Part shown: positions 1,753 to 33,062 of the stretch, piece by piece
Numbering within the stretch: position 1 is the stretch's first letter
Layout: every line of letters starts with the position of its first letter
Assembly: GCA_963820525.1 (NCBI GenBank)
Contig: CAWGAA010000002.1
Coordinates: 224,001-288,000 of the forward strand
Source of the DNA: an uncultured Spirochaetota bacterium
GTDB taxonomy: Bacteria > Spirochaetota > Spirochaetia > SZUA-6 > Fen-1364
DNA length: 64,000 bases
Reading direction: 5' to 3'
Translations under genes and position numbers: made by a program
Notes under the pieces: model-generated
The model's input: only the letters and a program-made list of their open reading frames with translations
The model's database searches: none
Told to the model about the DNA's origin: nothing

Positions 1753-3950
1753 GTCTTCAGCTCCAGGCTTTTCACGTAGTGCAGGTGAGTCTCCGCCTTT
1801 GCGGAGACGGGAAGCACGTCCACTCCGATGAGGGGCGCGTCGAAATCCATGGTGAGGGTGAGGGTGAAGGTCATTCCCGACGGAAGGGTGAGCTGGATGG
1901 GGAGGGGATCGGGGGGAAAGGCGCCGATGAGCAGCCGGTAATCGTGAGCGCTCTCCCGGATGAAGGGGAAGGAGCAATCCAGCAGGATGAACTCGTCGGG
2001 GGAGGAAAGCTTCGCGCTGAGGCTCCGCGGGTTGGCGCCCGAGGAAACGTCGAGGAGCAGGTTTTTCTTGTGGAGGAACTCGCTCTCACGCACCGCCACG
2101 GAGATGGGCACGTCGCGCGGTGGAAGGGCAAGGACACGCCGTGACTGGCGCACCTCCAGCCGCTCTTCGCCGTTTGCGTCCCGCACGACAACTTCCCCGA
2201 TCGGCGCCGGGCTGTCCATCTCCACGGCGTTGGTCTGGGAAGCCTCGTCGATGGTCTGCGTGACGCTGACGGGCTGAGGATGATCCGCCGTGAAGGGAGA
2301 AAAGAGAACGAGAGTCACGATGAGAGCGAGGGAGGCGGCGGAGAAGACTCCGGCGAACAGCGGCGAGCGCGTCCCCCGGCGCAGGATGCCCGGACCGCGG
2401 AAGAGGAGCCCCAAGCGGATGATGAACAGGACAAAGGGCAGGATCAGGCCAGCGATGAGCAGGTTGCCCCTGATCGGGGAGAGGAGGATGAAATGGCAGA
2501 ACGGGAGGGCGGGCATGAGGAAGACCTCGATGAGACCGCGCACGCCCCAGAAAGACGCGGGGAGGAAGAGCAGGAGCTTGGCCCACCGGTTCCTGGTCAG
2601 GGTGGCGAGGAGCACGAAGACGAAGGCCCAGAGAAAATAGAAGCTGAAGGAGATGTTGATCGCGGCGACGACCAGGATATCGGCGAGGAGAAAGAAGATC
2701 GAAGCCGCGGAGTAGAAGCTTCCATTGCGGGAGAAGCGGACGCCGCGCAGGAGAGGGAAGAAGGCGCTGTAGAGCCCGAGGGGCAGGGCAAGCTTCAAAA
2801 GCAGGAAGGTCATGGGAACGTACGTCCAGAGCGAGGGAAAGAGCCTCAAGGCCAGGATCCCCTCCAGAGCGAAGGTGGCGATCAGCAGGAGGAGAAACGG
2901 GATGGCGTACACCGGCAGGATGCTCCAACCATTGCGCAGCAAGGTGCGGATGTACTTCCTCAGTCCCTTCCGCAAGACCAGGGAGTAGAGGAGAATCGCC
3001 GTGACGGCCGCCAGAAGGATCCCGATATAGGCCTTCTCCGTCACGATGAGCGAGGCGCTTCCTTCCTGGAAGAGCAGGTAATGGCGGTCCCACTCTTCGG
3101 GGATCCGTCCGGAGCCCGCGTTCAGGAAATCGGAGAAAAACGTGTCGAAGGAGGAAAGCCGCTCGCCGATGAGCGCGGGATCAACCGCGCCGTATTCTCC
3201 TTCGAGGCTGATGGCGGGATAGCCGGCGCGAAGGTACGGCTCGATGATGGTGGGCTCGCCGGCCAGCCCGAGGCGGAAGACCTGGTTTTCATAGCCCCGC
3301 AGGAGGTAGGGGACTTTCGATTGCCGAAGCGCCTCGACCGAGCGGTTCATGAGCCAGTAGGGGCTCACGATTCCCGTCCCGCCCCCGCGCACCAGCACGC
3401 GGGAGGGCACGGCCCGGAAGTTCAAGTACAGGACCGCCACCCGGTAGTCGGGCTGGAAATCGCTCAGGAAGAGGTTGCTGCCCAGGGGATAATCGGGAGT
3501 GGAGCCGAACTCGGCGCCGAGGAACAGGACGGTCACGGAGACGGGAGGCGGCGCCGCCTTCATCTGGCGAAGGAGCCCGAGGGCCAGGGCGATATTCACC
3601 GCGCCGTCCATGCCCGGCGCGGCGTCGGGCATGTGGTCCAAGGGAACGGCGATGATCATGGTATCCCGGGATGAGCCCACGATATCGACGCGGATGCAGG
3701 AGGAGAAGGAGTGCTCGAAGTCGCTCTGGCTGAAATCGAATGTCGAATACGGGATGCCGTAGGCGCCGAGGCGGGACTCGATATAGGCGAGCGCCCTCGT
3801 GGAGCCGGCAGAGCCCTCCAGCCGCGGGTACAACGAGCTTATCGCCCGCAGATCGTTCGACGCGTCGTCGGGCGGAGCCTCCGGCGCGCTTTGTGAAAAA
3901 ACAAAGGAGGGAAGGGCGGAGAGCAGGGCGAGGACAAGGATCTTCCGCAT
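1749..3950 (-). CDS. M28-peptidase-like domain plus multi-pass membrane protein
   Basis: Signal peptide MRKILVLALL; M28-like segments IIAVPLDH, GMDGAVNIALAL, VLFLGAEFG; roughly 8-9 hydrophobic TM stretches follow. Confidence 0.65.
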   Translation of the reverse strand: MRKILVLALLSALPSFVFSQSAPEAPPDDASNDLRAISSLYPRLEGSAGSTRALAYIESRLGAYGIPYSTFDFSQSDFEHSFSSCIRVDIVGSSRDTMIIAVPLDHMPDAAPGMDGAVNIALALGLLRQMKAAPPPVSVTVLFLGAEFGSTPDYPLGSNLFLSDFQPDYRVAVLYLNFRAVPSRVLVRGGGTGIVSPYWLMNRSVEALRQSKVPYLLRGYENQVFRLGLAGEPTIIEPYLRAGYPAISLEGEYGAVDPALIGERLSSFDTFFSDFLNAGSGRIPEEWDRHYLLFQEGSASLIVTEKAYIGILLAAVTAILLYSLVLRKGLRKYIRTLLRNGWSILPVYAIPFLLLLIATFALEGILALRLFPSLWTYVPMTFLLLKLALPLGLYSAFFPLLRGVRFSRNGSFYSAASIFFLLADILVVAAINISFSFYFLWAFVFVLLATLTRNRWAKLLLFLPASFWGVRGLIEVFLMPALPFCHFILLSPIRGNLLIAGLILPFVLFIIRLGLLFRGPGILRRGTRSPLFAGVFSAASLALIVTLVLFSPFTADHPQPVSVTQTIDEASQTNAVEMDSPAPIGEVVVRDANGEERLEVRQSRRVLALPPRDVPISVAVRESEFLHKKNLLLDVSSGANPRSLSAKLSSPDEFILLDCSFPFIRESAHDYRLLIGAFPPDPLPIQLTLPSGMTFTLTLTMDFDAPLIGVDVLPVSAKAETHLHYVKSLELKT

Positions 3951-16595: not shown

Positions 16596-18113
16596 CTACT
16601 GGAAGCGCCGGCGGATCTCGGCGCTCACGTAGTCGAGCACGGCCACCGTCACGGCGATGAACCAGACCGCGATGCCCGCGGCCCGGTAGTCGAGGAGCCG
16701 GATGTACTGCACGAGGATGAAGCCGACCCCGCCGCCGCCCACAAGCCCGATGACCGTGGACATGCGCACATTGACGTCCCAGCGGTAGATCGAGAAGGAC
16801 ACGAACGGGGAGATCATCTGCGGTACCACCGCGTACATGATGTTCTGAAGGCGCGTGGCGCCCGTGGCGTCGATGGCCTCGATGGGTCCCGGGTCGATCC
16901 CTTCGATGGCCTCGGAATACAGCTTTCCCAGGGCGGCCACCGAATGCACGGTGAGCGCCACGATCCCGGCAAAAGGCCCGAGTCCCACCCAGACCACTGC
17001 GATGAGGGCCCAGATCAAGGGCTCGATGGCCCTTACCACGTTCATGACGGTGCGGGTGAAGAAGTAGATTGCCAGGGTGATGGGCGAGCCGGACATGATG
17101 TTGCGTGCCGCCAGGAAGCTTACAGGAATGGAGAGGATGATCCCGAACAGCGTGGCCATCATGCCCATGAAGATCGTCTCAACCATGCGCTGCACTACCA
17201 ACTGCAGCGGCTCGCTCACGCGAAGCGGCGCAAAACCGATGGGCTGCCGCGCCTCCACCCTGTGCGGCTGTTCCCTGCCCTTCACCGAAGGCCCGATGGA
17301 GTAGGGCATGACGACATCCACGGTGAAGCTGCCCTGCGCGTCGGTCTGAATAGAGAGGTAGTTTCCGCCCTTTCGAAGCTGAAAGGCGTTTCCCAGGGGA
17401 TCGATCCACCACAGATCCACCGGAAGCCCCGGCTTGAAGCCGGTGCCGGAGAGCGTGATGGTAGTGCCGGGAATGAGCTGGTTGTTCTCGTCGAGAAAGG
17501 AGAGGTCTCCCGTGCTCGGGTTGGCCACCATGTGCGGCTTGCCGGGCACGATGGGATCCGGCGCCGGCCCCGGCCCGGCGGACTTCGGCACCATGATGGA
17601 AGCGCCGGCAACCGAAAGGAGCGGCTCCCTGACAACCGCAGCCTGCCACGGCCAGATCACCCTGCCAAGCGGCTGCATGGCCTGGGGGAAGTCGGTCACC
17701 AGCCGGGCGGGGGAGATCTCGCTGATCTGCCACCCCAGGGCAAAGAAAGCGAATAGGATGAGCACGAATAAAAGCGGGCTTCCGCGGTGCTCCCGTGCCC
17801 GAAGGAAGGCGTCCCACCCGTTCCAGAGCCAGATTGCGGCGGCGCAGAGGATCACCAGCACCACGAACAGGGGCTGAAGCTCGAAGGCCTTTCGGAGCAT
17901 CGCGCCGCGAGTCTGCTGCAAGCGGCCGAGGAGCGCGAACCTCCACGCCATCATTCCCACGATGGACAGGACCGAGCAGAGGATGAGAACACCGCGCCAA
18001 ATAGCGCGAGAAAGGGCCTGGCCGAGTCCCGGCACGATGAGGGAGAGGATTCCAGCGGCCCAGGGGCGTACGAGAGCGGGACGCTCTTCCTGGGGGGCGA
18101 GTGCCTGTTTCAT
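16596..18113 (-). CDS. phnE: Phosphonate/phosphite ABC permease, extended form
   Basis: LGKLYSEAIEGIDPGPIEAIDATGA, YRWDVNVRMSTVIGLVGGGGVG. Confidence 0.88.
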   Translation of the reverse strand: MKQALAPQEERPALVRPWAAGILSLIVPGLGQALSRAIWRGVLILCSVLSIVGMMAWRFALLGRLQQTRGAMLRKAFELQPLFVVLVILCAAAIWLWNGWDAFLRAREHRGSPLLFVLILFAFFALGWQISEISPARLVTDFPQAMQPLGRVIWPWQAAVVREPLLSVAGASIMVPKSAGPGPAPDPIVPGKPHMVANPSTGDLSFLDENNQLIPGTTITLSGTGFKPGLPVDLWWIDPLGNAFQLRKGGNYLSIQTDAQGSFTVDVVMPYSIGPSVKGREQPHRVEARQPIGFAPLRVSEPLQLVVQRMVETIFMGMMATLFGIILSIPVSFLAARNIMSGSPITLAIYFFTRTVMNVVRAIEPLIWALIAVVWVGLGPFAGIVALTVHSVAALGKLYSEAIEGIDPGPIEAIDATGATRLQNIMYAVVPQMISPFVSFSIYRWDVNVRMSTVIGLVGGGGVGFILVQYIRLLDYRAAGIAVWFIAVTVAVLDYVSAEIRRRFQ

Positions 18114-18901
18114 GTCGTCGGCCCCTCCTCCCGACGGCCCGCATTAGTGCGCACGGCCTCCTCGCCGTAGATCTCCTTGAACTCGGTGTCCGTCATTCGG
18201 CGGATGTCCTCTCCCGTTCCGCGCCATACGAGCCTGCCGCCGTGGAGACCGATGACCCGGCTGGCATAGCGCTGAACCAGGTCGAGGTAGTGCAGGCTGC
18301 AGAGGATCGTGATGTGGTCCTCGCGGTTGAGCTCCTCCAGGTGTCCGAGGATCGAGTGGGCGAGGACGGGATCGAGGCTGGCAACGGGCTCGTCGGCCAG
18401 GATCATGCGGGGCTGCTGCATCAGGGCCCGGGCGATTCCGACCCTCTGCTGCTGCCCGCCGGAAAGCTCGCGCGCCTGCTTTCGCGCCTTGTCGCGCATC
18501 CCGACCCGTTCCAGCGCCTTCCAGGCCAACTCGCGGTCCGCCGGGGGGAAGCGGTGGAAGAGGCTGGGCCCTGATTTCACGTAGCCGAGGCGGCCGGAAA
18601 GGACATTGGTAAGCACCGAGGATCGCTTCACCAGGTTGAACTGCTGGAACACCATCCCGATCTGGCGGCGGATGCGCCGAAGGTCCTCGCCTTGAGCGGC
18701 GGTGACGTCCACCCCGTCCCAGAGGATCCTGCCCTCGGTGGGGTCGATCAGGCGGTTGATGCAGCGAAGGAGGGTGGATTTGCCCGAGCCGCTCAGGCCA
18801 ATGATGATGAGAAACTCGCCCGGCTCGACGGTGAAGCTCACGTCGCGCAGGGCTACCGTTCCGTCCTTGTACACCTTGGTCAGGTTCTGAACCTCGAGCA
18901 T
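18110..18901 (-). CDS. phnC: Phosphonate ABC ATP-binding protein
   Basis: [37 protein letters not shown]. Confidence 0.92.
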   Translation of the reverse strand: MLEVQNLTKVYKDGTVALRDVSFTVEPGEFLIIIGLSGSGKSTLLRCINRLIDPTEGRILWDGVDVTAAQGEDLRRIRRQIGMVFQQFNLVKRSSVLTNVLSGRLGYVKSGPSLFHRFPPADRELAWKALERVGMRDKARKQARELSGGQQQRVGIARALMQQPRMILADEPVASLDPVLAHSILGHLEELNREDHITILCSLHYLDLVQRYASRVIGLHGGRLVWRGTGEDIRRMTDTEFKEIYGEEAVRTNAGRREEGPTT

Positions 18902-18924
18902 GACCGAGTGAGTCCCTTCCTGAA

Positions 18925-18948
18925 AGCGGGGGCCTCGCGGCCCCCGCT
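18925..18948 (-). terminator. Stem-loop between phnD and phnC
   Basis: AGCGGGGGCC-tcgc-GGCCCCCGCT perfect 10-bp stem. Confidence 0.55.
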
Positions 18949-18973
18949 CAATCCATTGCCAAGCGGCCGTCCG

Positions 18974-19882
18974 TCACTTCTTCGGCATCAGTACGTCCGC
19001 TGTCACGCCGGCGGCCTGGAGCACCTGGCGGAAAGAATCATAGAAGCTGTCGTCATGCTTCTCCAGGGCGGTCCACTGGTATGCCGTGTTGATCGCGGCC
19101 TTGCCCTCGGGGGTCGCAATGATGGAGAGAAGACCGTCGACGATCTTGTCTCGCAGCTCCTGCGGCACGGACGGGCTGAACTGCACGCCGTCGTTGGGGA
19201 TGTTGCCGGATTCCTGGAGCACGATCACCTTCTCCATCACGTCGGGGTGATCCTTCTGGATGTTGGCGCGCGCGTCCACGAAGCAGGCGCCTGCATCGGC
19301 CTGGCCCGTGTACACGGCGGTCACGACCGCCGGATGGCTGCCGGCATCCAGGACCTTCAGATCGGTATCCAGATTCAGCCCCGCCGCTTTGAGCATCAGG
19401 CTCGGGATGATCCAGCCGCTCGCGGAAAGCGGGTCCACCCGGGCGAAGCTGTGGCCCTTGAGATCGGCCAGCGTCTTTATGCCCGTATCCGGCCTCGTGA
19501 TGATCATGCCCTTGTAGAAGGCGCTTCCGTTTCGCACGGAGACCAGCGCGGCCTGGGCCACCTTCTGGTCCGCGGCGAGGATGTACGCTGCCGTGGCGAG
19601 CGAGCTCATCTGCGCCTTGGGCGGCTTGGCCTTCATGGCTTCAATGACGCCGACATAGTCCGTGGCCACGAAGGTCTTGAAGAACAGGCCGGTCTTGGCG
19701 TGAAGAAGGTCCGCGACGCTCTGGGCCCCCGCGGAGACTTTCCCCGTCTCGCCGGAGGGCACGTACGCCCAGATGATGGGGTTCTTCTCGGTCCCGAGCT
19801 GCTCCTGCTGCGCCGAGGCGAATCCAATGATCGCGCATGCCGTCATCAGCGCGAGCGATAGGAGAACGATTTTTCTGCCCAA
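18974..19882 (-). CDS. phnD: Phosphonate/phosphite/phosphate ABC substrate-binding protein
   Basis: TTG start after AGGAGG; signal peptide; DYVGVIEAM, DPLSASGWIIP, GSHPAVV, IPND. Confidence 0.88.
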   Translation of the reverse strand: MGRKIVLLSLALMTACAIIGFASAQQEQLGTEKNPIIWAYVPSGETGKVSAGAQSVADLLHAKTGLFFKTFVATDYVGVIEAMKAKPPKAQMSSLATAAYILAADQKVAQAALVSVRNGSAFYKGMIITRPDTGIKTLADLKGHSFARVDPLSASGWIIPSLMLKAAGLNLDTDLKVLDAGSHPAVVTAVYTGQADAGACFVDARANIQKDHPDVMEKVIVLQESGNIPNDGVQFSPSVPQELRDKIVDGLLSIIATPEGKAAINTAYQWTALEKHDDSFYDSFRQVLQAAGVTADVLMPKK

Positions 19883-20053
19883 GCGATACCTCCTTTGGTG
19901 AAAAGCTTTCCATCAGGGTACGACGCTGGAGCTAAACCGTCAAGCGAAAGGAGAGCAGTGCCTCAATGGGCCGGCAGGGCAGTCGTGCGGCCGTTAAGGC
20001 CGCGGGGCACATGCCACTTCACCAGGGGCGCCGGCCCGGATATGCTTTCCGCC

Positions 20054-20779
20054 ATGGCCGCGGACATTCACGAGCTTCTCCTTCTTCTGGGGAGGCCCGC
20101 CTCGGGCAAGAGCGAGATCATCGACTATCTCCAACATCTCGATGCCGAGCAGAGGCGCCGGCGCTTTCGGGTCGGCACCCCGGTTGTCCTGGACGACTTT
20201 CCCCTGCTCTGGGCCTGGTTCGAGGAGGACGGGATCCTGGAGCGGATTGGCAAGGCGCGGCTGCACAGCGCGGCTGACGGGTACTTCTCCGCGAGACACT
20301 TCTGGGAGGTGCTGATCAGGCGCCTCGCCCTCGAATACGACAAGCTTCAAGCCGCGGATTCCGATCTGCACAAAACCACTACTGTCGTCATCGAGTTCTC
20401 CCGGGGAACGGAGCACGGCGGGTATAAGGAGGCGCTTGCCCAGCTCTCCGATGCGGTGCTCGAGCGGGCGGCGGCGCTGTATGTCCATGTCTCTTTCGAA
20501 GAATCCCTGCGCAAGAATCGCCGCAGGTTCAACCCCGACAAGCCCCACAGCGTCCTCGAGCATGGGCTGCCCGACGAAAAGATGGACCGGCTCTACCGCC
20601 GGGACGACTGGCAGGATCTCACCCGCGCCGATACCGGACACCTCCTGGTGCGGGGCCGCACAGTGCCGGCAGTCACGTTCGAAAACGAGGACGATGTCAC
20701 GACTCCCCGGGGAGACGCCCTGGGAAAACGGCTCCAGGAGTGCCTGGAAAAGCTCTGGAGGCTCCGCTTCGAATCGTAG
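20054..20779 (+). CDS. Uncharacterised P-loop NTPase/kinase-like protein
   Basis: LLLLGRPASGKSE Walker A near N-terminus. Confidence 0.6.
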   Translation: MAADIHELLLLLGRPASGKSEIIDYLQHLDAEQRRRRFRVGTPVVLDDFPLLWAWFEEDGILERIGKARLHSAADGYFSARHFWEVLIRRLALEYDKLQAADSDLHKTTTVVIEFSRGTEHGGYKEALAQLSDAVLERAAALYVHVSFEESLRKNRRRFNPDKPHSVLEHGLPDEKMDRLYRRDDWQDLTRADTGHLLVRGRTVPAVTFENEDDVTTPRGDALGKRLQECLEKLWRLRFES

Positions 20780-20853
20780 AGGCGGGCTGCCGAGCTTCCA
20801 ACGTGATGTCGGGGCGCCCCTCTAGAGCCCCCCGGATATCGAGGCTTGAGTGA

Positions 20854-20883
20854 ATAGGTGGGACGGAAGCCCGTCCCACCTAT
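20854..20883. terminator. 13-bp inverted repeat between convergent genes (terminator or REP-like)
   Basis: ATAGGTGGGACGG-aagc-CCGTCCCACCTAT. Confidence 0.6.
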
Positions 20884-20920
20884 CGCCGTTCGTCATCGCC
20901 GCTCCGGCTGGAGCAAATCA

Positions 20921-21868
20921 CTATTGCTTATTGCTCTTCAGATCCCAGCTTACCTCGAATTCTGGCCCGGGAGTGCCGTCGGACCTCGTTTGCGTGTACG
21001 TTATCGTGATCTTGGAGAACGTCAGCGCCACTTCTTCCAGCAGCCGGCCGTTGGTTCCCGTGGCGGCCGCGGGCTGGAGCGAGGTTATGATAACGTCCTC
21101 GAGCTCGAACTTGAGAATAGGAAACGTCTCATTGCCTCCACTTCGCAGGACCTCAATGTCCGCGCGTGGGATCTGGTCCCCGTTGGCCGCGTACAAGAAG
21201 AGGCTCGGAGAAGAGCGGTCTATGACTTTGAGGATTGTGAAGCTTCCGAATTCGGCCTTGGATGAGCCGCCGCCGGGAGTCATAGAGCCGGATCTCTCCA
21301 CGCCGAAGTGGTAGCCGACCGTGTCGATCCAATCCCTGTGGTGCTGGTCCGTCGATTCTCCATTTATTTGTTCAAGTTTTGTAAAAATGTCGCATCCGGT
21401 CGGAATGACGATGCCGTCGCTGGAAGCGCCTTGACCCATGCCTTCCAGGTTGACGGTCACATCGCTGGGATCTCCCTTCGGACCCGGGGGACCTTGCGCT
21501 CCGGGATCTCCTTTTTCACCCGCCGGTCCCGTCTGGCCCACGGGGCCGGGAAGACCTTCAGGTCCTATCGGGCCGGTTGAGCCTGCGGGGCCGGGAATGC
21601 CCGCCGGACCCATGGGACCGGTCGGACCTGCAGGTCCGGCAGGGCCCATTGGCCCAACCGGTCCCTTCTCCCCTTTGGGCCCAGGGATGAGATGAATCGA
21701 GCGGACGGCTTTCCAGAGCTGCTGGATGTCGCGCTCGATCCGCTCAAGTCTGGCGTTCTGATTGCCATCCCCCCTGCCGGGTCCGTCGTTGTCTGTCGCC
21801 CACGCTTTCATGGTTAAAAAAGAAATGAATAGGGCGATGATCAGGATCAATCGACGTTCTGTTTTCAT
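20921..21868 (-). CDS. Secreted collagen-like repeat protein fused to an Hcp (T6SS tube) domain
   Basis: RBS GAGGAGG; signal peptide ending AWA; 24 uninterrupted GXY triplets (21467-21682); Hcp motifs [49 protein letters not shown]. Confidence 0.85.
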
Positions 21869-22190
21869 ACTTTCCTCCTCTTGCGTCGAACGGTACCATG
21901 GACGACGAACAGAGGCAAGCGATGGAACGGTCGATTGAGGCATTCTTCCCCGCGTGGAACGCGTTTTGGGGCAAAGTTGGGACACGCGATGCCTTCGGAA
22001 GATCGCTCTTCATTCTCGACTGGATTGTCTCGAATCAGCCCTATTCTCTTACAGTCGCACGAGAGTGTCCCAATGCATGCAATTACAATGATTATATAGG
22101 AATACATGAACGCACTTTCCCGGAAGCGTCATTCTGCTAAGCGATCACTGATTAGCATGGAGCGACGGCAGTATAAGACTATTGAAAGCA

Positions 22191-22206
22191 TGGCATGCTT
22201 TTTGCA
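22191..22206 (+). promoter_or_regulatory. sigma54 (-24/-12) promoter of sugar ABC operon 1
   Basis: TGGCAT-GCTTT-TTGCA matches TGGCAC-N5-TTGC(A/T) with correct spacing. Confidence 0.8.
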
Positions 22207-22347
22207 CAAAATATCATTGACTATCACACCGGGTGATATGTGAAACTCATCGATACAAAGCTCGCACGCCGAGAGCAGGAGGTGATATAACTGTCTAAGG
22301 TGTCAGCTTTGTAGGAGAGTGTCATTTCCAAAAAACGGAGGTGCATT

Positions 22348-23385
22348 ATGAAAAGGTTCCTCGTCTGTCTTCTTGCCCTTCTTGTCCTGGCGGCCTTCAG
22401 CGTTTACGCGGGTGGCGCCAAGGAAGCGGGACCGGCTGCGGGAAAACATCCGATCAAGAACAACACGATCACCATAGCCTGGATACCAAAAGCGTTGAAC
22501 AACCCGGTCTTCGAATTGGGCCGCGTGGGCGCCCTTAAAAAGGCTGAGGAGTTGACCGCCAAAGGTCCCTACAAGGTGAACATCTTGTACGTCGCCTCGG
22601 TGGCATCGGACATTGCGGAGCAGGCGCGGGTTGTCGAGGATGTCATCGCAAAAGGGGTTGACGCCATCGGCATCTCGTGCAACGAACCGACGGGCTGTGT
22701 AGACCCCATCCAGAAAGCGGTCAAAGCGGGAGTCGAGGTCATGACGTGGGATTCAGATTCGCCGAAAAGCGGGCGTTTCACCTACCTGGGTGTCGACAAC
22801 TATGAGGGCGGGAAGGCCGCTGCAGACCTGCTCGTGAAAGCCATGGGGACCAGTGGAGATGTCGCCCTGCTCACCGGCGTGCCGGGAGCGTTCAACCTGG
22901 AGGAGCGCATCCGCGGGTTCAAAGACGGCGTCAAGAACTACCCGAACATCAAGATCGTAAAGACCGTGGCCTGCAACGACGACATCAACCAGGGGGTGCA
23001 GGTCGTGGAGGAGACCATGCAGTCGAACCCCGACCTGAAGGGCTGGTTCTTCGTCGGTCTCTGGCCGCTGTTCGCCAACCGCGGCTCCATGAAGAGCTGG
23101 GAAGCGGCAGAGAAGGCAGGCACGTTGAAGACGATTTCTTTCGACACGCTTCCGGTGGAGCTGGACTTCGTGAAGGATGGATACGTCCAGGGCCTCGTTG
23201 GCCAGAAATACTGGGGCTGGGGATACGACACGGTCCAGATGATCTATGATAAAATCGTCAGCGGGAAGACCTTCGGTTCGTTTACCAACTCCGGCATGGA
23301 TCTCGTCACGCCGAAGAACGTTGCTGTCATGGCCGACATGTGGGCCACAATGGACTTCACCAAGACCCTGCCGCCGGCCTTTTAA
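22348..23385 (+). CDS. Sugar ABC substrate-binding protein (CUT2/RbsB-like)
   Basis: Signal peptide ..[39 protein letters not shown]. Confidence 0.9.
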
Positions 23386-23407
23386 AAGGTGCGCAGGAGC
23401 TTTCGTC

Positions 23408-23445
23408 CCGGCCGGGGTCCATCGCGTCCCCGGTCGGTTTTTTTT
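23408..23445 (+). terminator. Intrinsic terminator-like hairpin after binding-protein gene
   Basis: CCGGCCGGGG..CCCCGGTCGG followed by T8. Confidence 0.65.
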
Positions 23446-23465
23446 CGACGCCGCGCAAACCGAAT

Positions 23466-24986
23466 ATGAGTGATGACAGGGCTTTCCTCTTGCAGATGCA
23501 GCAGATATCCAAATCCTTTCCCGGAGTCCAGGCGCTGGACGGCGTGGACCTGGAAGTCCGTGCCGGAGAGGTTCTTGCCCTGGTGGGCGAGAACGGCGCG
23601 GGCAAGTCCACCCTGATGAAGATCCTGAGCGGCGCTCATCGCAAGGACGCGGGGCGAGTCTTTCTGGAAGGAAGGGAGGTGGAGATCGAGAACCCGCACC
23701 ACGCGCTGCAGCTGGGTATCGCCATCATCTACCAGGAGTTCAACCTCACCCGCAACCAGACGGTGGCGGCGAATATCTACATCGCCCGCGAGCCGCGCGT
23801 GGCAGGGCTTGGCGGCGTGTTGGGCTTCGTCGACCGCTCCCGCATGGAAGCGGACGCCAGCCGGGTTCTCCAGCGCATCCGGTCGAAGATTCCCGTCGAC
23901 GTCAAGGTGCGGGATCTTTCCGTGGCCCAGCAGCAGATGGTGGAGATAGCCAAGGCCATCGCGGTGCAGGCGAAGATCCTGATCATGGACGAGCCGACCG
24001 CGGCCCTGGGCGAGAACGAAACCGAGGTGCTTTTCGAGACGGTGCACGGCCTGAAAGCCCAGGGGATCGCCATCATCTTCATCACCCATCGGCTGGAGGA
24101 GATGTTCCGCATCGCGGACCGCGTCGTCGTGCTGAGGGACGGGCAGCGCGTCGGAGAGCTTCCCATCGCGGAGGCGACGCCCGATCGGGTGGTGCAGATG
24201 ATGGTCGGGCGGAGCCTCCAGGAAATCTTTTACAAAGAGCCGGTGGACATCACGCAGCCTATCCTCGAAGTGCGCGGTCTCACCCGGCGCGGCGCCGTTC
24301 TGAACGTCAGCTTCACGCTGCGCCGCGGAGAGATCCTCGGCTTTGCGGGGCTGGTGGGAGCCGGGCGCACGGAGACGGCGCGGCTGCTGTTCGGAGCGGA
24401 CACCCGTGACGGCGGCGAGGTGCTGTTGGAGGGCAAACCTCTGCGGATCGACTCGCCCACCGCGGCCGTGAAGGCGGGGATCGGGCTGGTTCCGGAAGAC
24501 CGCGGCCTGCAGGGGTTGGTGCTCAAGTTGCCGGTCCAGGAGAACATCGTGCTGGCGACCCTGCCGCGGCACAGTACGGCAGGCTGGATGGACAGGTCCC
24601 GGATTGCGGAGACGGCCCATACCTTCGTGCAACGGCTCTCTATCAGGACGCCGCACCTGCGTCAGAAAACGATGCTCCTCTCCGGCGGCAACCAGCAGAA
24701 GGTGGTGCTCGCCAAGTGGCTGGCCTCCCAACCGAAGGTGCTGATTCTGGACGAGCCGACCCGCGGCATCGATGTGGGCGCGAAGGCGGAGGTGCATGCC
24801 CTCATGAGCCGGCTTGCGCGCTCCGGCATCGGCATTATAATGATCTCATCGGAGCTGCCTGAGATCATGGCAATGAGCGACAGGATCATCGTGATGCATG
24901 AAGGTCGCATTGCGGCCGTGCTCGGCCGTTCGGAAGCGACGCAGGAGCTGGTTATGGCGTACGCAAGCGGACAGCAGAGGGGGTAG
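23466..24986 (+). CDS. Sugar ABC ATP-binding protein (tandem NBD, RbsA/MglA-like)
   Basis: GENGAGKS, MDEPTAAL, GLVGAGRTE, LSGGNQQKVVLAKWL, DEPTRGIDVGAK. Confidence 0.95.
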   Translation: MSDDRAFLLQMQQISKSFPGVQALDGVDLEVRAGEVLALVGENGAGKSTLMKILSGAHRKDAGRVFLEGREVEIENPHHALQLGIAIIYQEFNLTRNQTVAANIYIAREPRVAGLGGVLGFVDRSRMEADASRVLQRIRSKIPVDVKVRDLSVAQQQMVEIAKAIAVQAKILIMDEPTAALGENETEVLFETVHGLKAQGIAIIFITHRLEEMFRIADRVVVLRDGQRVGELPIAEATPDRVVQMMVGRSLQEIFYKEPVDITQPILEVRGLTRRGAVLNVSFTLRRGEILGFAGLVGAGRTETARLLFGADTRDGGEVLLEGKPLRIDSPTAAVKAGIGLVPEDRGLQGLVLKLPVQENIVLATLPRHSTAGWMDRSRIAETAHTFVQRLSIRTPHLRQKTMLLSGGNQQKVVLAKWLASQPKVLILDEPTRGIDVGAKAEVHALMSRLARSGIGIIMISSELPEIMAMSDRIIVMHEGRIAAVLGRSEATQELVMAYASGQQRG

Positions 24987-24991
24987 CAACT

Positions 24992-25990
24992 ATGGCAGAA
25001 GACTCGTCGAAATCCTCCGCGCCGAGCGCGCGGCGGGGAGCCGCCCTCCGCGGGATCGTGCGCGCCCAGGAGTTCGGCGTGTCCCTCATCCTGGCCGCGA
25101 TGGTGCTCTTCCTGAGCGTCTTCACGAACACCTTCCTCACGAGCACGAACATCTTCAACATCCTTCGCGCTTTCTCCTGGATCGCCATCAGCGGCTTCGG
25201 CGAATGCATGGTAATCATCACCGGAGGGATAGACCTCTCCGTGGGATCGGTGATGGGCTTCGCCGGTCTGATCTCGGCGATGCTGCTCAGATTCTCCGGA
25301 AACATTCTTCTGGCGGTGGCGGGCGGCCTTGCCGCCGGCGTCGTGATCGGCCTGCTCAACGGATTGATGGTCACGAAAGCACGGCTGCCTCCCTTCATCG
25401 CGACCCTGGGCATGCTGCTCATGGCGCGCGGCCTGTGCTACGGCCTCTCGGGCGGTTGGCCCGTGCAGGATCTTTCCCAGGGCTTTCGAAACCTGGGGCA
25501 GTTCGACATCCCCTTCCTGGGCGCGGGCATTCCCCTCCCCCTGGTGTTCATGATCGTCATCGGCGCGATCATGATGGTGTTCCTGACGCGCACTGTCTGG
25601 GGATACCGCATCTACGCGGTCGGAGGCAATGAAGTGGCCTCGGGGCTTTCCGGCATCAGCACGGACCGCGTGAAGATCATGGTCTACACCCTCGGCGCGT
25701 TCCTCACCGCGATCGGCGGTATCCTGATGACCGCCCGCTTGGGGGTGGCGTCCCCGATGGCTGCATACGGGTACGAGCTCGATGTGATTGCGGCGGCGGT
25801 GGTCGGGGGCACGAGCCTCGCCGGCGGGGAAGGAACGATCCTTGGGGTTCTCATCGGTGCGGCTATCATGCAGGTGCTCCGCACGGGACTCATACTGACC
25901 GGCGTGTCCGCCTACTGGCTGCAGGCGGTCCAGGGTCTGGTGATCGTCGTGGCGATCATGCTCGACCAGCTGCAGAAACGCCGCAGATAA
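24992..25990 (+). CDS. Sugar ABC permease (RbsC-like)
   Basis: GGIDLSVGS, PPFIATLG, YELDVIAAAVVGGTSLAGG. Confidence 0.93.
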   Translation: MAEDSSKSSAPSARRGAALRGIVRAQEFGVSLILAAMVLFLSVFTNTFLTSTNIFNILRAFSWIAISGFGECMVIITGGIDLSVGSVMGFAGLISAMLLRFSGNILLAVAGGLAAGVVIGLLNGLMVTKARLPPFIATLGMLLMARGLCYGLSGGWPVQDLSQGFRNLGQFDIPFLGAGIPLPLVFMIVIGAIMMVFLTRTVWGYRIYAVGGNEVASGLSGISTDRVKIMVYTLGAFLTAIGGILMTARLGVASPMAAYGYELDVIAAAVVGGTSLAGGEGTILGVLIGAAIMQVLRTGLILTGVSAYWLQAVQGLVIVVAIMLDQLQKRRR

Positions 25991-33046: not shown

Positions 33047-33062
33047 TGGCACGGAGCTTGCT
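33047..33062 (+). promoter_or_regulatory. sigma54 (-24/-12) promoter of sugar ABC operon 2
   Basis: TGGCAC-GGAGC-TTGCT, exact consensus match. Confidence 0.88.

Follow-up and report, generated by a model that had tools for sequence, protein, structure and literature searches.

We analysed a 64,000-nucleotide stretch of DNA from an uncultured Spirochaetota bacterium (contig CAWGAA010000002.1, positions 224,001 to 288,000; G000:C2:224001-288000 in our numbering), hereafter termed the window, which belongs to a genome of 5.05 Mb in 4 contigs that is 96.67% complete and not closed. On the reverse strand of the window lies an open reading frame (ORF) at 20921-21868 whose 315-residue product joins a signal-type N-terminus, a short coiled-coil helix, a collagen-like region and, at its C-terminus, a complete domain of the Hcp (TssD) family, otherwise known from type VI secretion systems (T6SS). 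An initial annotation of the nucleotide sequence had proposed this order of parts and read it as an Hcp repurposed for export. Below we describe this collagen-Hcp gene, the genome that carries it and its relatives, and then consider what kind of assembly its product may form.

Parts and integrity of the collagen-Hcp gene

The gene starts at an ATG (21866-21868) and its coding part, without the stop codon (20921..20923), spans 20924-21868, all on the reverse strand; the sequence reads as a Shine-Dalgarno motif, AGGAGG, at 21874..21879 (-), with the ATG 5 nucleotides downstream. An alternative GTG start at 21985 would add 39 residues that have no counterpart in orthologues. In a scan of positions 20600-22400, nothing resembling a terminator was found, nor any promoter-like site on the strand of the gene, and matches to the sigma-54 consensus across the window (14, versus 23 expected by chance) include none upstream of the gene.

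Residues 1-24 (21797..21868) form the putative Sec-type signal peptide, which is delimited by eye, by a hydrophobicity heuristic and by comparison with orthologue N-termini, and which has a basic n-region (K2, R5, R6), a 14-residue hydrophobic core (Kyte-Doolittle mean of 3.27 over 11 residues) and A-W-A at positions -3 to -1. Its signal character is conserved in orthologues. The mature protein would begin with a short segment rich in Asp, Gly and Asn (residues 25-36; 21761..21796), and acidic stretches resembling D-N-D-G recur here among orthologues. This segment also holds an R-G-D tripeptide (residues 32-34; 21767-21775, reverse strand) that is not conserved in orthologues and is probably due to chance. 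A heptad helix follows at residues 37-62 (21683..21760) and adjoins the collagen directly; it is indicated by its 3-4-3-4-3 spacing (L41, I44, I48, L51, V55, I58, within a helix of about residues 37-61), by an AlphaFold2 helix at residues 37-56, by the trimer model discussed below and by conservation of the heptad segment in orthologues.

The collagen-like region comprises 24 GXY triplets without a break (residues 63-134; 21467..21682), a number that our count reproduces exactly, and it matches the Pfam Collagen profile with E 1.6e-13. In NCBIfam, the same region matches the models of Lcl, SclB and SclA with E-values from 8e-14 to 4e-10, yet the equivalog scores stay far below the family cut-offs (51 bits where 500 are needed for Lcl, 40 of 400 for SclA and 50 of 325 for SclB), so that the protein is not a member of these families. 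The linker at residues 135-159 (21392..21466), defined by alignment, opens with a S-D-V-T-V-N-x-E-G motif and continues as a sequence rich in Gly, Ser and Ala; the predicted local confidence of AlphaFold2 (pLDDT) is below 50 at residues 136-147.

The C-terminal domain (residues 160-315; 20924..21391) is a full-length Hcp domain, as had been claimed. PF05638 matches with E 1.1e-29 over all of its profile positions (1-129/129), and solved Hcp1 proteins align colinearly with the domain over their residues 3-160. Sequence matches in the PDB include 4tv4 (from Burkholderia pseudomallei) and 8yun, both with E of about 1e-25, and the Pseudomonas aeruginosa Hcp1 structure 1y12 (E 9e-24), the first chain of which (1y12_A) is also the top Foldseek match with a target-normalised TM-score of 0.89. 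Across the solved Hcp1 proteins found by Foldseek, identity is about 30% and target-normalised TM-scores range from 0.89 to 0.94, while pLDDT, taken in 10-residue blocks, is at least 90 over most of the domain. The NCBIfam model for TssD (TIGR03344) is missed marginally, the score being 57.5 bits and the cut-off 58.9. The best ESM Atlas matches (0.84-0.87) are Actinomycetota Hcp clusters, below the lead threshold of 0.9. Taken part by part, the collagen-Hcp gene is not a set of chance patterns.

Whether the collagen and Hcp parts are truly encoded together was assessed by comparing public metagenome contigs from four runs over positions 20780-22000. A 609-nucleotide contig from another study covers 21167-21775 with at least 99% identity and crosses both the helix-collagen and the collagen-Hcp junction. 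In a third study, a 2666-nucleotide contig aligns to 20838-21943 with 90-95% identity and shows 64 substitutions and three indels, two of which lie in the collagen and are in frame (+18 nucleotides at 21566 and -9 at 21630), the third (-6 nucleotides at 20880) falling past the stop codon. As the frame is kept and the indels within the gene, both multiples of a triplet, occur inside the collagen only, the diverged copy differs in stalk length alone. An assembly chimera, in which separate collagen and Hcp genes had been joined by error, could draw on the contigs of one run, where the stretch is in two pieces and the break lies inside the collagen repeat at 21587-21610. However, contigs from two other studies cross both junctions, and the identical architecture recurs in independent genomes and metagenomes, leaving such a chimera with a probability close to negligible. 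The collagen-Hcp fusion is one real gene, as the initial annotation had assumed. The stretch is present in freshwater-sediment, sediment, wetland and soil metagenomes, and no RNA run is among the public datasets found to contain it.

A host genome without T6SS matches

FlaA, which sheathes the periplasmic flagella of spirochetes, has 3 matches in the genome, compared to 0 of 14 control genomes, and this identifies the host as a diderm spirochete. The collagen-Hcp gene is the only Hcp match of this genome in a family search. The initial annotation had noted that no other T6SS or phage-tail gene lies in the window and had suggested that the genome be checked for TssB, TssC and VgrG; the observation extends to the entire genome, which has no match to TssB (PF05591), TssC (PF05943), gp25/TssE (PF04965), TssF (PF05947), TssK (PF05936) or VgrG/GPD (PF05954), nor to the phage sheath, in searches whose positive controls responded every time. 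Moreover, TssC is found in 0 of 61 relatives' genomes.

These results bear directly on the possibility that the hydrophobic N-terminus does not function as a signal and that the protein is an ordinary orphan Hcp, fired by a T6SS encoded elsewhere. Orphan hcp genes, located apart from T6SS clusters, are described as common in T6SS-bearing bacteria in a passage of Abby 2016 (PMC4793230), and the genome at hand is neither complete nor closed. Yet seven core families without a genome match, together with the lack of TssC among the relatives, speak against such a T6SS, signal-like N-termini are conserved across orthologues, and a trimeric stalk on the N-terminal face would be expected to hinder the head-to-tail stacking of rings in a sheath. 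We consider this explanation extremely unlikely.

Compared to canonical Hcp/TssD proteins, which are cytoplasmic, about 160-170 residues long and devoid of a signal peptide, the collagen-Hcp protein shares a complete and colinear domain in its C-terminal 156 residues and, in the trimer model, what appear to be ring-type lateral contacts forming an arc. It differs in its length of 315 residues, in its signal-type N-terminus (by heuristic), in a 135-residue N-terminal extension of coiled coil and collagen, and in the lack of matches to the T6SS core genes that would be expected alongside a canonical Hcp. Hcps that are extended by a C-terminal toxin domain (Hcp-ET) are said to have been reported by Ma et al. 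2017, and a survey is given by Howard 2021 (PMC8262886). They resemble the present protein in that Hcp is fused to another module, whereas their extension is a C-terminal effector delivered by the T6SS and that of the collagen-Hcp protein is N-terminal, non-enzymatic and placed behind a signal peptide. Furthermore, there is no room for a C-terminal effector, as the Hcp domain extends to the final residue, 315.

The gene is flanked by transporters and regulators. To its left are a phosphonate-type ATP-binding cassette (ABC) transporter at 16596-19882 (-) and a convergent ORF of 294 residues at 19895-20779 (+) without a Pfam family at E <=1e-5, which contains a P-loop-like G-x-x-x-x-G-K-S motif. 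To its right, a sugar ABC transporter (22348-25990) is transcribed divergently, and further neighbours encode a histidine kinase and a response regulator of the sigma-54 type. Upstream of this sugar ABC operon, which starts at 22348, a sigma-54-type consensus occurs with 1 mismatch at 22191-22206 (+), and the consensus is matched exactly at 33047-33062 (+). Elsewhere in the genome, the only other collagen-like gene (G000:C1, L010, 610..2004 (+) and 2001..2603 (+)) combines a signal peptide and a large N-terminal domain with some 17 GXY triplets, after which the frame apparently shifts into an ORF of A-F-D-G-x-x-I-W-V repeats, reflecting either a frameshift or two genes.

Phages commonly possess collagen-like tail fibres, and their tail tubes are homologous to Hcp. 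A phage- or prophage-derived fibre or tube remnant might thus be suspected from both halves of the protein, the more so as many matches of the collagen region, among the matches listed, are named prophage tail-fibre proteins. Those matches span the collagen part only, however, covering 20-40% of the protein, and its best matches are cellular Hcp1 proteins. The neighbouring ABC transporters and regulators, the absence of sheath, gp25 or GPD matches from the genome and the presence of a Sec signal peptide likewise do not suit a phage remnant, and a scan of viral contigs gave 15 pattern matches with 0 confirmed relatives. We therefore regard a phage origin as very unlikely.

Relatives and distribution

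In searches with the full-length protein, collagen-only proteins dominate the 120 matches listed. Consequently, relatives were sought with the Hcp part alone (residues 140-315) against 1.84 billion representatives, yielding 8136 proteins at E <=1e-3 and 41 at E <=1e-30. We sorted 151 proteins (our protein and its best 150 matches) using a domain hidden Markov model and a hydrophobicity heuristic. A single Hcp domain is present in 97 of the 151, and 59 of these 97, our protein included (58 of 96 without it), have a signal-like N-terminus: 48 carry the signal-like N-terminus alone and 11, again with our protein included, combine signal and collagen. The remaining single-domain proteins comprise 32 with a canonical short N-terminus, 1 with an N-terminal motif of the L-E-x-R-x-L-L type and 5 that are unclear. 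Additionally, 20 proteins have 2-4 Hcp domains and 34 have 5-7. In an alignment of 99 single-domain relatives, Pfam Collagen is found in 13 and PEP-CTERM in 2.

The survey of the architecture across taxa that the initial annotation had called for shows that it recurs. Nine proteins have the identical order of signal, helix, collagen, linker motif and Hcp, with stalks of 7-24 triplets and with the S-D-V-T-V-N-x-E-G motif conserved after the collagen; a signal-type N-terminus is present in 8 of the 9 aligned orthologues, and in the orthologue from the related genome G022 as well. Full-length orthologues occur in G022 and in a second relative, G027, at loci that are not syntenic. In a domain tree, for which three domains were taken from each protein with at least 5 Hcp domains, our protein falls in a clade of five proteins of the same architecture (support 95); the tree is otherwise poorly resolved, with 105 of 258 inner branches open, and on its well-supported branches at least 3 origins have to be assumed for the collagen label.

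Homologues are distributed patchily, occurring in 4 of 61 relatives (own genome included; 1 of 29 high-quality genomes). In a sample of 301 genomes of the phylum, matches are confined to the own genome and to five genomes of one other genus. The proteins of that genus match the Hcp-domain alignment weakly (E 5e-10 to 1e-6), four of them (L012-L015) being divergent Hcp-like proteins of 174-196 residues, each with a signal-like hydrophobic N-terminus, and the fifth (L016) being truncated N-terminally to 113 residues. A scan of genome contigs with a narrow peptide pattern matched 4 stretches, 2 of which were confirmed.

Two variations on the fusion are of particular relevance to its possible assembly. 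Firstly, collagen is combined with two Hcp domains in 3 of 17 scanned proteins (P0199, P0047, P0101), and the same-order relative G027 has such a gene (L008, 1495..2886, reverse strand). Secondly, the 34 proteins with 5-7 tandem Hcp domains have mostly six, over lengths of 900-2160 residues (among P0122-P0172, e.g. P0163, P0132, P0151), and 11 of the 34 begin with a motif of the L-E-x-R-x-L-L type. All ten six-domain proteins that were scanned also contain Big_13 (Ig-like), PKD, dockerin, RTX, cadherin-like or serralysin-C domains. Such six-Hcp chains may represent covalent six-domain rings, and an AlphaFold2 model of the six-domain protein P0163 (predicted template modelling score 0.64, mean pLDDT 74.6) is compatible with a defined multi-domain packing.

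Further arrangements were seen in passing. Proteins P0047 and P0002 have a CarboxypepD_reg domain N-terminal to the collagen. A second collagen-Hcp type (P0173, P0183, P0207, P0004, P0009, P0030, P0014, P0006) carries a Cys module (I-H-G-C-Y ... R-L-R-V ... W-N) between signal and collagen, in place of the coiled coil, and the look-alike clusters in the ESM Atlas are mostly from Actinomycetota. Collagen-Hcp proteins of an Actinomycetota type are among the relatives obtained here.

Within a limited collection of literature, including a passage of Abby 2016, we found no description of a signal-bearing, collagen-fused or tandem Hcp. Howard 2021 (PMC8262886) reports that about 267,000 PF05638 genes were gathered and that those bearing PEP-CTERM were removed; in its main text, the terms 'collagen' and 'signal peptide' each occur 0 times.

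Effectors are bound in the lumen of canonical Hcp rings (Howard 2021), and this raises the hypothesis of a defensive decoy, in which an exported Hcp ring would bind and neutralise T6SS effectors or tube components arriving from neighbours. The closeness of the domain to canonical Hcp1, without large indels, would be expected of a decoy, and the host combines a lack of T6SS matches of its own with a habitat of dense sediment and wetland communities. On the other hand, a collagen stalk, and six-domain versions embedded in Ig, cadherin and RTX proteins, are better suited to a scaffold or adhesin, the gene is patchy among relatives, and its neighbourhood does not resemble a defence locus. On balance, we find a decoy function improbable.

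A proposed collagen-stalked Hcp ring

The reading that we favour, and consider moderately probable, is that the gene encodes a Sec-exported, collagen-stalked Hcp ring assembly that is independent of the T6SS. Support for its quaternary arrangement comes from models of the trimer of residues 25-315, obtained in three runs and with three controls. The trimer scores 0.43 (median of the three runs), compared to 0.00 for the best control; in a calibration, this score was reached by 20 of 30 proteins with a structure solved as a pair of one chain, and by 1 of 23 proteins with a structure solved as a lone chain. At least 76% of contacts are shared among the runs, with a partner pLDDT of 72 or more. 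In the model, the three chains meet along the a/d side of the helix (residues 37, 40-41, 44, 47-48, 51, 54-55, 58) and then in a continuous, staggered three-chain contact over residues 62-133, as in a collagen triple helix. Lateral Hcp contacts involve one face only of copy 1 (around residues 186-194, 251-252 and 289-308), the other face only of copy 2 (216-230, 260-268) and both faces of copy 3. The three Hcp domains are thus predicted to form an open arc with two free, complementary faces, corresponding to half of a six-membered ring, as opposed to a closed trimer.

Comparable solutions can be found in engineered proteins. Several PDB entries place a partner on the N-terminus of Hcp1 (GspE-Hcp1, 4kss and 4ksr; Vps4-Hcp1, 6ap1; TrwK-Hcp1, 7o42), of which 6ap1, 4kss and 7o42 have 6 chains each and 4ksr is titled a hexamer, entries for engineered Hcp1 fusions being deposited with 3 to 6 chains. 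These show that N-terminal cargo is compatible with an Hcp ring, although they are artificial and cytoplasmic and their partners are hexameric, whereas the collagen considered here is trimeric. Three chains of a protein with collagen and two Hcp domains would likewise bring together six domains. Given the open arc, the six-domain chains, the proteins with collagen and two Hcp domains and the engineered fusions, we propose that two trimers contribute to each ring, or that arcs are shared. The mixture of trimer and hexamer symmetries foreseen in the initial annotation is therefore supported in part, by a trimer model with a coiled-coil and collagen trimer and a half-ring arc, and by relatives whose domain numbers fit; the closure of the ring itself would be a further step.

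Under this proposal, the signal peptide would be cleaved off, and the short N-terminal coiled coil would join three chains and so nucleate the 24-triplet collagen triple helix. Collagen rises by about 0.29 nm per residue, which would give a stalk of about 20 nm. At its far end, the flexible 25-residue linker would bear three Hcp domains, arranged side by side through their usual ring contacts as an open half-ring, and two such trimers could close one six-membered Hcp ring, or neighbouring trimers could share arcs. A stalked ring would result, positioned either in the periplasm of a sediment spirochete or at its surface.

Several points weigh against this proposal, or at least against parts of it. 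The calibration of the trimer score refers to two copies with their own alignments, and its counts hold roughly for three copies; furthermore, the score may stem from solved Hcp hexamers and collagen helices that the model has memorised. Conservation of the lateral-face residues does not significantly exceed that of the remaining domain (Mann-Whitney p 0.21 with 99 sequences and 0.19 within the clade of 5), in a comparison that does not control for burial. The signal peptide is assigned by heuristics (inspection by eye and Kyte-Doolittle hydrophobicity), and in a diderm a Sec signal by itself would take the protein no further than the periplasm. With one secretin gene in the genome, passage through the outer membrane is possible, but nothing connects this gene to the collagen-Hcp protein. 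We found no anchor, there being no Cys lipobox by eye, no Pfam match to PEP-CTERM and no LPXTG in the translation, and no neighbour of the gene is conserved. As neither an anchor motif nor a conserved neighbour is available as a guide, we infer location and function by analogy.

Close analogues are other collagen-stalk proteins of bacteria. Scl1 and Scl2 of Streptococcus, BclA of Bacillus and Lcl of Legionella have in common with the collagen-Hcp protein (whose own export is presumed from its signal-type N-terminus) that they are exported and combine a GXY stalk with a globular head and with a non-collagen trimerisation element beside the collagen; their heads are V or C1q-like domains, whereas here the head is Hcp and neither LPXTG nor another anchor was found. 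C1q and the collectins offer a further analogy, in that a trimeric collagen stalk displays clustered globular heads, but their head domains are not homologous to Hcp, and in our protein the coiled coil lies N-terminal to the collagen. By analogy with the bacterial proteins, the most likely role of the collagen-Hcp assembly would be that of a scaffold or a multivalent binding head. A bolder alternative, which we regard as rather unlikely, is that Hcp rings are a widespread extracellular building block unrelated to T6SS firing, and that in this case three-fold collagen nodes and six-fold Hcp nodes, connected by flexible linkers, would produce a hexagonal mesh and hence a new envelope or surface lattice. 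On this view, relatives seem to arrive at the same ring in different ways, either with collagen and two Hcp domains or with six Hcp domains in an adhesin chain with RTX, cadherin or dockerin domains.

The initial suggestion that Hcp has been repurposed as an exported module is, overall, partly supported, since the domain is genuine, the gene is single, the signal is conserved and no T6SS is matched. Hcp is treated as a hallmark of the T6SS in genome annotation and is a standard read-out of its secretion, yet here, in lineages that gave no T6SS match, a near-canonical Hcp domain follows an export signal, and its nearest relatives range from proteins with a signal peptide alone to those with a collagen stalk, with PEP-CTERM or with six domains per chain. 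Given an export signal without a T6SS match, and this breadth among relatives, Hcp matches alone should not be taken as evidence of a T6SS. The collagen-Hcp protein thus places a known domain in an undescribed context of export and assembly, and the geometry of a trimer on a hexamer would be a natural case of symmetry mixing, of interest to designers of protein assemblies. The Hcp ring fold probably serves, outside the cell or in the periplasm, in a role not described so far.

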